Below are positions 31,061 through 60,650 of a DNA stretch of 64,000 bases, in pieces. Below the pieces are notes generated by a model. The model was not told where the DNA came from, ran no database searches, and saw only the letters and a list, made by a program, of their open reading frames with translations. The position numbers and the translations under genes were made by a program. The stretch spans positions 96,782,001-96,846,000 of the forward strand of contig OX597819.1 in NCBI GenBank assembly GCA_951406725.2, written 5' to 3'. Position 1 is the stretch's first letter. The number at the start of each line of letters is the position of its first letter. This DNA comes from Octopus vulgaris (Eukaryota).

Positions 31061-31210
31061 TCCATCTTGTCCCATAGCAGCAGTCCGACTAATGCTTTAT
31101 GAAAAAACTTGGTCTGTATATACACACACGCACACACATACACATGTATGTGTGTGTATATATATACATAAATACATATATATATACATACATACATATA
31201 TATACATATA

Positions 31211-31372
31211 GGCGCAGGAGTGGCTGTGTGGTAAGTAGCTTGTTTACTAACCACATGGTTCCGGGTTCAGTCCCACTGCGTGGCACCTTGGGCAAGTGTC
31301 TTCTTCTATAGCCTCGGGCCAACCAAAACCTTGTGAGTGGATTTGGTAGACGGAAACTGAAAGAAGCCCGTC

Positions 31373-31419
<47 letters not shown>

Positions 31420-31636
31420 TGTGTCTGTTTGTGTGTCTGTGTTTGTCCCCCTAGCATTGCTTGACAACCGATGCTGGTGTGTTTATGTCCCCGTTACTTA
31501 GCGGTTCGGCAAAAGAGACCGATAGAATAAGTACTGGGCTTACAATAGAATAAGTTCCGGGGTCGAGTTGCTCGATTAAAGGCGGTGCTCCAGCATAGCC
31601 GCAGTCAAATGACTGAAACAAGTAAAAGAGTAAAGA

Positions 31637-31637
<1 letters not shown>
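31211..31637 (+). mobile_element. Full-length family-B tRNA-derived CORE-like SINE with internal microsatellite
   Basis: GGCGCAGGAGTGGCTGTGTGGTAAG...GGTTCAGTCCC...ACCTTGGGCAAGTG; tail agtaaaagagtaaaga. Confidence 0.92.
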
Positions 31638-31673
<36 letters not shown>

Positions 31674-31681
31674 GAAAAGCG

Positions 31682-32260
31682 CCACTTGGTTCTCAGCGCT
31701 GGGAGAAAAGCGCCACTTGGTTCTCAGACTATGAAGCCGTCTTTCAAACAGAGCACGCCTCCAACAACCCTTTCCAGAAAATAAGAAAACCAAAACAACA
31801 CCCAAACACCGATACACACCCGTCTAAAAATCGGAACCTTCACTACTATCAAAAAAAGAATACAGGACCTAACCCCAACTCTGTAAGCAGCCAGCGATAC
31901 AATATCAGGAATACCCCCACTTCAAGCAGAGAAAGGATAAATCAACACCCACAGCATAGACACTGCAACCTCATCCCCACCCAAAGGAGTTACCAACGAA
32001 ATCTTCGTCCCATTAACCGGTTAAACAACCATGCACAACAAACCCACACCACTTGCAATGATTACCAACGAAGGCCTCCTAGAACACCACACCCGAATAT
32101 GGGATATCGGGATGCTCTCCTCAATACTGCTCCAAGAACACACACCACAAATCACAACAGGAGACCCCTAATCAACAAAGAACAACTATATACTAGCTAC
32201 CGTCCCAACCACCGCATTCATTTTTTAGACCCAATACGCAAACACAGAGACACAAGATAG
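31682..32260 (+). CDS. 5'-truncated upstream ORF (ORF1-like, N/P/R/H-rich) of the PLE, not in ORF track
   Basis: ~193 stop-free codons ending ...MGYRDALLN...RIHFLDPIRKHRDTR*; overlaps pol, which lies in the -1 frame. Confidence 0.65.
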   Translation, partial: PLGSQRWEKSATWFSDYEAVFQTEHASNNPFQKIRKPKQHPNTDTHPSKNRNLHYYQKKNTGPNPNSVSSQRYNIRNTPTSSRERINQHPQHRHCNLIPTQRSYQRNLRPINRLNNHAQQTHTTCNDYQRRPPRTPHPNMGYRDALLNTAPRTHTTNHNRRPLINKEQLYTSYRPNHRIHFLDPIRKHRDTR

Positions 32261-34549
32261 CACCAAACAAGCAGGAGGAACCAAAAGTAATAAAAATTAT
32301 TAATCTAACTCACAAGGAACTAACAGCAAACCAAATAAACATACTTTCCAAAGGACTCAAGTTTACACCCACCCCACAACACCCCAACTACAATGAAATG
32401 AAAGAAGACATCGCAGAATTCTGCAGAAAATTAAGACTTACTGAGGAGCTATACGATAAATACAACGAGGACGAATCGTTAGCCAGAAATAGGAGTAACT
32501 ACACCCCTCGAAAGGTAAGAATAAAACACTTGATGATTTCTGTGACCACATATCAAATTACCCATATCAACATATGCACAAACAAAAACACAAACCAAAC
32601 TTCAGCAAAAAAGAATGGGCTGAGTTGAACAAATTAAAACTAGATAAAACAATAACAATCAAAGAGGCCGATAAAGGGAGTGCTGTTGTCTTAATGGATA
32701 CGACATTTTACATAACTTTGGTACTTTCTATGCTGGAAGACACAAGATACTATGAAAAGGCACAAAACTACAGTCAACAAAAAATAATGAGGGAACTAAA
32801 ATCCATATTAAACCCATACAAAGCAGGGCTCACCGACAAAGAATATGATTATATGACCAATTTCACAAGTAAAACTAGCCAATTCTACGGTATACCTAAG
32901 ATCCACAAAAGTGAAAAAATAAGCAACGCATGCAAGATAGCTACAGACAAAATAATTAAAGTCCCTAATCCTAATGACCTCAAATTGAGACCCATAATAG
33001 CAGGTCCCGCATGCGAAACCCACCGCCTCAGTAACTTTTTAGACACCCTGTTAAAACCACTCCTCAAACATGTCAAAAGCTATATAAGGGACGACTTAGA
33101 TATGCTCAATCACCTACCGAATACTATAAACAAAAACACCATACTGGTATCCTTCGATGTAGTCAACCTCTACTCCAATATCCCCCACAACCTAGGACTA
33201 GAGGCAATCCAATTCTGGCTAGAGAATCACGCCAACGAACTACCACACCGCATCAAAAAAGAATTTGTGATAGAAGGGGTTAAATTCATCCTGGAAAATA
33301 ACTTCTTCGCCTTCAATGACAACTTCTACCGACAAAAATCGGGGACTGCGATGGGTACACGAATGGCCCCCTCCTTTGCCAACCTAGTCATAGGATACCT
33401 AGAGATCAGTCTGTATCGTAAGGTTCTAGAAAGATATGGCAGCCCTTTCTCCATCTACATAGAAAACAACTGGAAGAGATATCTAGATGACTGTTTCATC
33501 CTTTGGCATAAAAATATAGAAAAACTCATAGAATTCCAGAAAATTTTAAACGGACTGGACGTAAACATCCAATTCACGATGGAATATAGCCAACAACAAC
33601 TCCCCTTCCTCGATATCCTCATTAAGAAAGCTAATAATATAATAGAAACAGACATATACTATAAGCCTACAGACTCTAAGCAATATCTTCCATTCAATTC
33701 ATGCCACCCCAGACACACCAGGATGAATATCCCCTTCAATCTAGCAAAAAGGATATGCACTATAGTCTCTAACGCAAACACCAGAGACACACGACTACAA
33801 GAACTAAAAGATACCCTAATCACCAGGAACTATCCACCTTCACTTATTGACAAGTGCATTCAACGTGCCCTTCAACTTAACATCAAGGAACTGAGACATC
33901 CCAAATCAAAGAAAAACTTACAACCAAAAGCCTTACCATACATCTCCACACACAACCCTCTCAATAACGAAGCCTTCGACACCATCCTCCACAACATACC
34001 CCTCCTAAAAAAAGACCACAGAATGAACACAATCCTCCAAACACACACGATCATAAAAAGCAAAAGACAGCCTAGATCCATGAAAAGTCTCCTTACACAA
34101 GCCCGAATTCACTCTTCAACACAGAAGCCGACAGTAAAAAAATGTGGAAGACCCAATTGCGGGATATGCGACTATCTAATCGAGGGTTCGGAGTTCTCCT
34201 TCAAACAGGGACAACGGTTTACAGTGAAAAGCAACTTCACATGTGCTTCGGAGAACCTAATATACTCACTAACCTGCTCCGGGTGTCAAGAGCAGTACAT
34301 AGGCCAAACAAAAAATGGTTTGCGTAAACGAATGGCCCTGCACAGATCCCAGATAAAATTCCCCAAAACAGAAAAATAGCTTTTAGCCAACACATAGATA
34401 CTTGCGCCAACAAAAAAACACCAAACTTCAGAATTTTCCCCCTCTACCAATTTAGGGACGATACAACCTCGAGACAAAGAATAAGTAAAGAAAATCTCTT
34501 TATTACAAAATACAAGCCACTTCTTAACGGGTCTACGACAAACAATTAA
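32221..34549 (+). CDS. PLE reverse transcriptase + CxxxxCxxC linker + C-terminal GIY-YIG endonuclease; two 1-nt frameshifts (~32510, ~34365)
   Basis: INLT...LSKGLKFTPTP, ADKG, FYGIPKIHK, LRPII, SFDVVNLYSNI, GTAMGT, RYLDD, LPFLD, CGRPNCGIC, LIYSLTCSGC..YIGQT; after the shift SQHIDTC...KENLFITKYKPLLN*. Confidence 0.95.
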
Positions 34550-34679
34550 TATACCTCAACTTTAGAATAAAAGAAAAAAATATATATACACACACAAATA
34601 CTACACTCCATAGAATCCATTACTAATCAGCCCCTTCATAGCTATATTTACACCCATTCATATTCTCCCTTCTCTGTTT

Positions 34680-34968
34680 TTTTCTTCTTCTTCTTCTTCA
34701 TCATCATCGTTATCATCATCATCGGCGTCATCATCATCACCACCATCTTCTCCTTCTCCTTCTTCTTCTTCTTCTTCTTCTTCTTCTTCTTCTTCTTCTT
34801 CTTCTTCTTCTTCTTCTTCTTCTTCTTCTTCTTCTTCTTCTTCTTCTTCTTCATCATCGTTATCATCATCATCGTCGTCATAATCATCACCACCATCACC
34901 ATCATCTTCTCCTTCTCCTTCTTCTTCTTCTTCTTCTTCTTCTTCTTCTTCTTCTTCTTCTTCTTCTC
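34680..34968. repeat. (CTT)n/(CAT)n compound repeat in the PLE 3' UTR
   Basis: Direct reading. Confidence 0.95.
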
Positions 34969-35296
34969 CACCCCCTACCCCTTAAGTTTGTCACTAATGT
35001 TTTTTAGTATAACACCTACGCTAATTCTATAAACAATCCTGAATTGAACTGAGACTGCCAACCGCCACTGACCATTCAAAATACGACCATCAGGGCACTC
35101 CCAGATTCTCCCACCCCCTTTCCTCACCAGCCTTCCCTCTACTACCCTACCAAGAACTCACAACTACCTCGAACACACAAGTGCAAACAAGGGAGTCAGA
35201 GAAAGGCAGAATGCCACTTAAATCTGAACACTACTATAGAAATATTCTTTTAAAAAAACTTTTCTTCTAATTTTTCTAAATTTAATTATTTAATCG

Positions 35297-35340
35297 TTAC
35301 AGTTGAAAAGGTCTCAAAATGACCGAAACCGGTACTGAAA
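35297..35340 (+). ncRNA. Minimal type-I hammerhead ribozyme, U3-A8 variant
   Basis: CAG-TTGAAAA-GGTC tcaaaat GACC-GAAA-CCGG-TA-CTG; palindromic ACCGGT stem III; predicted cleavage after A35334. Confidence 0.8.
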
Positions 35341-35390
35341 TGTTCACTATAAAATTATTTTAGCATTTTCTATTTTTTACTTGTTTTTTC

Positions 35391-35633
<243 letters not shown>

Positions 35634-59954: not shown

Positions 59955-60650
59955 GAGGTGCAATGGCCCAGTGGTTAGGGCAGCCGACTCGCGGTCGGAG
60001 GATCGCGGTTTCGATTCCCAGACCGCGTGTTGTGTGTGTTTATTGAACGAAAACACCTAAAAGCTCCACGAGGCTCCAGCAGGCGCCTAACTTTCTCTCA
60101 CTCTTTACTCTTTTACTTGTTTCAGTCATTTGACTGGGGCCATGCTGGAGCACCGCCTTTTTAATCGAGCAACTCGACCCCAGGACTTATTCTTTTGTAA
60201 GCTCAGTACTTATTCTATCGGTCTCTTTTGCCGAACCGCTAAGTAACGGGGACATAAACACACCAGCATCGGTTGTCAAGCAATGCTAGGGGGACAAACA
60301 CAGACACACAAACACACACACGCACATATATATATATATACATATATACGACGGGCTTCTTTCAGTTTCCGTCTACCAAATCCACTCACAAGGCTTTGGT
60401 CGGCCCGAGGCTATAGTAGAAGACACTTGCCCAAGGTGCCATGCAGCGGGACTGAACCCGGAATCATGTGGTTGGTAAACAAGCTACTTACCACACAGCC
60501 ACTCCTGCGCCTCTTTCTTCCTGTTTCTTGAGTAACGCTGCGATGGACTGGCGTCCCGTCCAGCTGGAGGGAACACATACACCATAGAAACCGGGAAACC
60601 GGGCCCATGAGCCTGGCTAGGCTTGAAAAAGGGTGCATAAATAAATAAAT
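59955..60650 (+). mobile_element. V-domain-like tRNA SINE interrupted by a family-B SINE
   Basis: Head tggcccagtggttagggc...gtttcgattcc; GCGATGGACTGGCGTCCCGTCCAG after the insertion; (TAAA)n tail. Confidence 0.8.
60100..60511 (-). mobile_element. Family-B SINE, nested
   Basis: Reverse complement of the 31211 copy; CTCTTT-like duplication at the junctions. Confidence 0.92.

Follow-up and report, generated by a model that had tools for sequence, protein, structure and literature searches.

The window analysed here is a 64,000-nt stretch of the Octopus vulgaris genome (contig OX597819.1, positions 96,782,001 to 96,846,000), and it contains on its plus strand a 5'-truncated copy of an endonuclease-bearing (EN+) Penelope-like element (PLE) set between two (TA)n tracts, a microsatellite at 31638–31669 that marks the 5' insertion junction and a tract at 35391–35630 that marks the 3' insertion junction. 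Homology to the element begins at 31694, in codon 224 of an upstream open reading frame (ORF1), and the first 223 residues of the 411-aa ORF1 protein (P0001) are missing from this copy. The retained part (31694–32260) encodes residues 224–411, comprising the end of a helical core and a disordered basic/polar tail. At the truncated 5' end, 31673–31696 is by direct reading a plus-strand 24-nt duplication of element bases 31704–31727; it is templated, adjoins the (TA)n microsatellite and is absent from the full-length copies compared. The element has landed in the (TA)n tail of an abundant repeat (31210–31632, with an inverted copy at 60294–60512), which we take to be SINE-like. Elsewhere in the window, a dispersed 121-nt repeat (family D20) is present in 13 copies between 4193 and 55236.

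ORF1 terminates at a TAG codon (32258–32260) ten sense codons past a slippery heptamer, T TTT TTA, at 32221–32227. The junction reads CAT TTT TTA GAC in the ORF1 phase, so that the heptamer encodes Phe-Leu in ORF1 and Phe-Phe in the overlapping polymerase (pol) frame. The latter runs from 32197 to 34549 and encodes N-terminal GxKF and DKG motifs, a reverse transcriptase (RT), a CX4CX2C linker (34143–34169) and a GIY-YIG endonuclease; it is followed by a 3' UTR and pseudo-LTR (pLTR; 34550–35398), the 3' part of which is also found ahead of ORF1 in full-length and tandem copies. Reading the sequence directly, we confirmed three statements of an initial annotation of this DNA, namely that the heptamer lies in X-XXY-YYZ phase with the upstream frame, that the pol frame is closed upstream by a TAG (32194–32196), and that this frame has no ATG before the motif NL..L..L.KGL.F.PTP, the first one lying past the motif at 32398. 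The same annotation described the upstream frame as a stop-free stretch of ~193 codons at 31682–32260; the overlap with pol and the stop at 32258–32260 stand, but the frame in fact spans 31634–32260 (208 codons), and only 31694–32260 of it is element DNA. Two breaks in pol had been overlooked. The C4 run at 32504–32507 is C5 in 30 of 32 matches (loci L001–L030) and C4 in the other two, one of which is the window itself, while the A4 run at 34355–34358 is A5 in all 18 other matches (loci L001–L036). The window copy, 5'-truncated and with these two further frameshifts in pol, is dead, and because it is without the ORF1 start and its pol is broken, it is unable to make a fusion protein. Because pol also breaks at ~32505 and ~34357, a programmed offset and decay are indistinguishable from this copy alone.

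The pol of intact copies has the features of a PLE-type RT (RVT_1, E = 2e-8; GLKF, DKG and YLDD motifs) and of a GIY-YIG endonuclease (IY..C..C...YIG.T motif); with the broken window copy, PF01541 gave E = 0.007, which is under the curated cut-off. Pseudo-LTRs, tandem or inverted insertions and 5' truncation, all of them traits of EN+ PLEs, are present. The linker, CGRPNCGIC, fits the zinc-finger-like CX2-5CxxC pattern that marks Neptune and is shared by Nematis, as defined in the accessible part of PMC8557442, and in a by-eye comparison with the supplementary alignment of that paper both RT and linker are nearer the Neptune than the Nematis rows. The EN- Athena and Coprina classes do not fit: the endonuclease is present, and the copies are scattered over many large contigs. 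The elements depart from the single-ORF form of canonical EN+ PLEs in that intact copies have two overlapping ORFs. The label "Neptune-type" is based on motifs and should be read as putative.

Family A in the Octopus vulgaris genome

A DNA search of the species' own genome (2.8 Gb) returned 995 candidates, of which 40 were scored and 30 fetched, one of the latter being the window itself. The fetched copies, which were picked for similarity, match at 99.1–100%, and in none of them is there an indel in the overlap. Full-length copies consist of a pseudo-LTR followed by an ATG-initiated 411-aa ORF1 and a pol of 784 codons encoding RT, zinc finger and GIY-YIG; in intact copies pol overlaps ORF1 by 64 nt in the −1 frame, and its first Met is residue 68. 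This family, referred to as family A, is a young endonuclease-bearing Penelope-like (Neptune-type) retrotransposon family. At three loci (L032, L033 and L035), family A forms head-to-tail tandem arrays with a period of ~4.43 kb.

An unbiased pattern search for the junction identified 131 family A junctions. Among the 100 listed, 98 have T6 and two have T7, which fuses the frames. The initial annotation had pointed out that a fusing T-run length in other copies would speak against frameshifting; in the other 98 listed copies, the frames stay unfused.

The junction in sister families

Protein searches of the same genome led to eight further families (B, C, D, E, G, H, I and J). Their pol sequences are 56–72% identical among A, B, C, D and G, and those of I and J are 46–48% identical to that of A. 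In seven families (A, B, C, D, G, I and J), ORF1 and pol are both intact and overlap in −1; E and H have a junction of the same form, and their sampled ORF1s are broken upstream. An in-phase U-run heptamer is present in all nine families with a junction read. Eight have T TTT TTA, among them A and also B, C, D, G and I, in which the ORF1 phase reads T TTT TTA G; the ninth, family J, has T TTT TTT AC (CAT TTT TTT ACG; 193 junctions), i.e. a U7 heptamer with no AG and the same −1 overlap. Neither an AUG nor an AG is conserved at the junction across the nine families. The alignment of other copies and related elements that had been proposed as a check thus finds the heptamer and the −1 phase kept across diverged families: in families A–H, ungapped identity of the flanks is 28–53% upstream and 47–70% downstream, and the heptamer is invariant. 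In the five families examined for this, a coding body of 3.5 kb has just one to two T6 runs. From codon bias alone, CAT-TTT-TTA is expected with a probability of ~0.018 per family, a value that we left unmultiplied because the families are related.

Some of the fetched sister-family copies are broken or rearranged, and two copies of family D (L043 and L064) have lost one base near the junction. In family J, five of the 100 listed copies (193 junctions) are fused; four distinct +1 insertions were observed among them, and the fused copies compared have no private substitutions in common, indicating that they are sporadic. The natural in-frame ORF1-pol fusions of this family include L085–L088, with open frames of 1,199–1,214 codons, and L094, which has a stop further on; in each of them a sporadic +1 insertion has lengthened a neighbouring run of A or T.

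A minimal hammerhead-like motif, a candidate ribozyme, was found by motif scan in the pLTR of the window copy (35299–35338, plus strand), with a weak match to Rfam HH9 (E = 0.31, under the gathering score). Its variant core is present in only two of nine families scanned, as UUGAAAA in A and UUGACAA in E. Further instances lie at 2150 and 6595 of L031 and at 4973 of L060, and in full-length copies the motif is sited ~120 nt upstream of the ORF1 ATG. The core apparently has U3-A8 in place of the usual C3-G8 pair. Rfam miRNA matches were rejected as microsatellite artefacts.

ORF1 and its distant homologues

Searching proteins with the ORF1 core, we obtained 599 clusters (50% identity) at E ≤ 0.001, one of which has a pearl oyster member. 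Conservation of ORF1, on which the initial annotation had made its reading depend, is therefore evident. AlphaFold2 predicts a confident helical core (approximately residues 90–245, pLDDT mostly >90), N-terminal helices and a disordered tail, and ORF1 has no Pfam family, no Atlas match, and no fold match at E ≤ 0.001 in the PDB or a viral library. Because of the predicted helical core and the basic disordered tail, we propose that ORF1 is probably an RNA-packaging or scaffold protein.

From 154 homologues examined, we kept the 106 with at least 60 residues past the core and dropped 48 as fragments. Phe-Leu occurs within the last 45 aa in 80 of these 106 (shuffled sequences, mean 9.2, maximum 20; preceding 45-residue window, 5). 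In the remaining 26 it is absent; four of them have Phe-Phe, and several look truncated or broken. None of the residues with codons unable to end in T (K, E, Q, M and W) ever precedes Phe-Leu (0/80; background 19%, p = 4e-8), a constraint that the T-TTT-TTA phase imposes. The residue after Phe-Leu is one whose codon is unable to begin with G (Y/P/S/R/W/N/L/H/F) in 22 of the 80 and able to do so in 58. Compared as proteins, with their codons unseen, the homologues thus display a pattern that appears to fit a slippery heptamer and not a splice acceptor; at this level, Phe-Leu could alternatively be a short protein motif. No fused long ORF1 was found among the best 150 of the 599 representatives, the longest of which has 609 aa, and longer, fused ORF1 proteins were absent at E ≤ 0.001, which is weak evidence. 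DNA encoding the distant homologues was not found in the metagenome contigs, viral contigs or prokaryote genomes searched.

Downstream RNA and spacing of the ORF1 stop

The lack of an obvious downstream hairpin, raised as a caveat in the initial annotation, is real and extends to the whole group: at the canonical distance of 5–9 nt from the heptamer, predictions for the nine families give neither a stimulatory hairpin nor a pseudoknot. Folding energies are 0 to −9 kcal/mol over 50 nt with z-scores of ~0 or above, the lone low z-score being that of family E at only −3.1 kcal/mol, and the first 60 nt downstream are 63–85% A+C. Bare U6A slips at a few percent. Because all nine families are without a predicted stimulatory RNA structure, frameshift efficiency may be low.

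The position of the ORF1 stop is constrained in the homologues. There is no stop in codons 1–9 after Phe-Leu in any of the 80, with 27 expected at a baseline of 0.045 per codon; termination falls at codon 10 in one homologue and at codon 11, with ten sense codons before it, in 26 of 79. Nominal p values for this spacing overstate the case, the proteins being related. A conserved hydrophobic pol residue is insufficient by itself to account for the codon-11 stops, because this position has 26 stops versus 3 Tyr. On a quick tree the ten-codon trait is clustered (10 changes versus 22.9 for shuffled traits), and it looks ancestral in one large branch, in which it has been kept across long branches with unalignable tails. 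In the octopus families, the number of sense codons between heptamer and ORF1 stop is 10 in A, B and E, 11 in D, 20 in C and G, 30 in H, and 23 in I and J. Periodicity at 20 and 30 codons was rejected as support, and stops near 20 (+21) were discounted because the conserved pol motif K-[VI]-[IV]-(I)-N-L creates TAA/TAG in the ORF1 frame. Gly just past Phe-Leu is commoner in longer-tailed homologues (80 of 460 residues versus 28 of 339), which hints at a possible G-rich structure in this branch. Within the P0001 family, one subclade (L041, L044, L054 and L065) reads TGG at the +11 stop position, giving a D-T-R-W motif; the stop of family D lies right past this TGG, and family A, nested in the subclade, has TAG at the position, which suggests that a stop may have been lost and then regained.

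According to the accessible text of a preprint (10.1101/2023.02.01.526718), a 10-codon gap is the collision minimum, trailing ribosomes being 10–11 codons behind, and disomes and nearly collided pairs are enriched at stop codons. Measured from A site to A site, the slip-to-stop spacing is 11 codons, which matches these preprint values within one codon.

Discussion

Considering the two-ORF layout, the 64-nt −1 overlap and a heptamer phase fixed across nine families, all of which are features of the sequence itself, we think it very likely that a programmed −1 frameshift on U UUU UUA gives rise to an ORF1-pol fusion. The proposal in the initial annotation that RT and endonuclease are expressed through such a fusion is thereby supported for the family at the level of sequence, with the window copy itself unable to do so. 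In our model, most ribosomes would finish the 411-aa helical ORF1 protein, while in a minority tRNA-Phe and tRNA-Leu would re-pair one base back and the ribosome would read on into pol, yielding at low frequency an ORF1-pol fusion of ~1,175 aa. Because only a minority of ribosomes would slip, ORF1 protein would be in excess, as in retroviral gag-pol.

Pol could instead be made as a separate protein, by termination-reinitiation or by ribosomes that start internally on an AUG or a near-cognate codon ~30 nt past the U-run, overlapping the ORF1 stop. The pol codon at this place is ATG in C and D, ATA in A and B, CTA in E, CTG in G and TTG in H, with overlap of the ORF1 stop in A, B and E; yet a true AUG is found in only two of the seven families (C and D, 30 nt from the heptamer), A-ending codons that would permit an A-UGA overlap are not favoured (6 of the 26 ten-codon homologues cannot form one, at a background of 25%), and the conserved U-run is left unexplained. 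We consider separate synthesis of pol improbable.

The initial annotation had also noted that TTTTTTAG might be a splice acceptor, in which case pol would be made from spliced RNA entering past the AG. PLEs do retain introns, as stated in the accessible text of PMC8557442, a G right after the heptamer is present in eight of nine families and present or possible in 58 of 80 homologues, and C and D have an AUG shortly downstream. The caveat is weakened by family J (193 copies), in which T7 leads into AC and not AG in the same −1 overlap, and by the 22 of 80 homologues with Y/P/S/R/W/N/L/H/F after Phe-Leu. A splice acceptor would hold neither the T run in a set phase with ORF1 nor the two frames in a −1 relation, and A, B, E, G and H are without an AUG at the downstream position, making splicing even less probable than separate initiation. 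In contigs from four runs that bridge the family A junction gap-free, no joint ends at the AG, and family C contigs likewise have no joint there; the RNA status of these runs is guessed and contigs drop rare forms, and we do not count these observations as evidence.

Less probable again is joining at the nucleic-acid level, in which slippage of RNA polymerase or RT on the T run would produce a minority of T7 templates and hence pol in cis or in trans. Fused genomic copies do exist (two of 100 listed in A and five of 100 listed in J), and HIV RT introduces insertions and deletions at U6A in vitro according to the accessible part of PMC5737442; however, such slippage has no need of a conserved X-XXY-YYZ phase, four of the five listed J fusions arose by insertion elsewhere than in the T run, and no fused lineage has formed. 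Decay of a once-single ORF by an indel, as the source of the offset, has next to no probability and is refuted by the copies themselves: the window copy does have two other homopolymer indels, but these are nearly private, whereas the junction is common to 98 of 100 listed copies and to nine families.

If programmed frameshifting operates at this junction, the question arises of what takes the place of a pseudoknot. In the ten-codon branch, to which family A belongs, a ribosome terminating at the ORF1 stop might hold the next one on the slippery codons, while families without the ten-codon spacing would rely on the U-run alone. Such a collision cannot be required, because I and J have neither a structure nor a ten-codon stop, their tails being 23 codons long. 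It is conceivable, though on balance rather doubtful, that the terminating ribosome serves as a structure-free roadblock for −1 frameshifting in a widespread, undescribed Neptune branch. A search of the accessible literature on collisions and stops (including PMC7544508, PMC8168617, PMC5009743 and PMC5737442) gave no natural −1 site at which a terminating ribosome is the stimulator. The nearest case there is SARS-CoV-2, in which trailing ribosomes and a stop in the 0 frame close to the slip site likewise affect the outcome; there the stop aids refolding of a pseudoknot, whereas here, with no structure predicted, the part of obstacle would fall to the terminating ribosome.

U_UUU_UUA is the shift site of HIV-1 (PMC5737442, accessible part), and in the accessible text of PMC5737442 and PMC5009743 HIV-1 gag-pol has the same heptamer and phase and a structural-type ORF before the RT ORF; the likeness extends in family I to the continuation UUUUUUAGGG. 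Unlike HIV-1, the elements described here are non-viral, and their downstream RNA is A/C-rich and unstructured, with no stem-loop. Among PLEs, canonical EN+ elements are single-ORF according to the abstract of PMC8557442, and two-ORF PLEs lack the endonuclease according to the accessible part of PMC6431247. The families described here share with the Neptune EN+ PLEs of PMC8557442, as far as its accessible text describes them, the C-terminal GIY-YIG, the CX2-5CxxC linker, GxKF and DKG, the pLTR, (TA)n targets and a 3' hammerhead-like motif, and differ from them in having a separate 411-aa ORF1 ahead of pol in −1, with no Pfam or fold match. In the accessible literature, Neptune-like PLEs with esterases (PMC5408684) and a fish Neptune with a short, non-overlapping ORF1 of unknown kind (PMC12602865) have been described.

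Our search for PLE frameshifting in the accessible literature retrieved one relevant statement, the legend to Fig. 1 of PMC8557442, according to which PLE ORF1 is separable by a frameshift with a pseudoknot, the clade being unnamed; the accessible parts of PMC3846280 and PMC6515669 contain nothing on the subject. The present families resemble such frameshift-with-pseudoknot PLEs in that a helical/coiled-coil ORF1 would be joined to RT through a frameshift, and differ from them in that they carry an endonuclease, are dispersed and have no predicted pseudoknot or hairpin. The pseudoknot statement probably refers to the coiled-coil ORF1s of Athena/Terminon elements, for which papers from 2007 (Gladyshev) and 2017 (Arkhipova) reportedly describe an ORF1 frameshift. 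The general idea of an ORF1 frameshift in PLEs is, as far as that legend goes, already in print (PMC8557442), and an optional ORF1 for Neptune may already be drawn in the same figure. What is new is the undescribed ORF1 family, the absence of a predicted RNA stimulator and the ten-codon stop spacing.

With these findings, the gene model of many EN+ PLEs becomes a gag-pol-like pair in place of a single ORF, and constructs, whether consensus or reporter, that begin at the internal pol Met may be incomplete. The findings also define a large family of ORF1 proteins, with 599 clusters and without a match in Pfam, the PDB or the Atlas, and supply natural candidate −1 sites without a predicted RNA stimulator. 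The fused family J copies (L085–L088 and L094) are natural controls for the question of whether a pure fusion can transpose, and the conserved slip-to-stop distance means that two to three point mutations can ask whether a terminating ribosome stimulates frameshifting behind it. If it does, pol output would rise with ribosome load and with slow termination.
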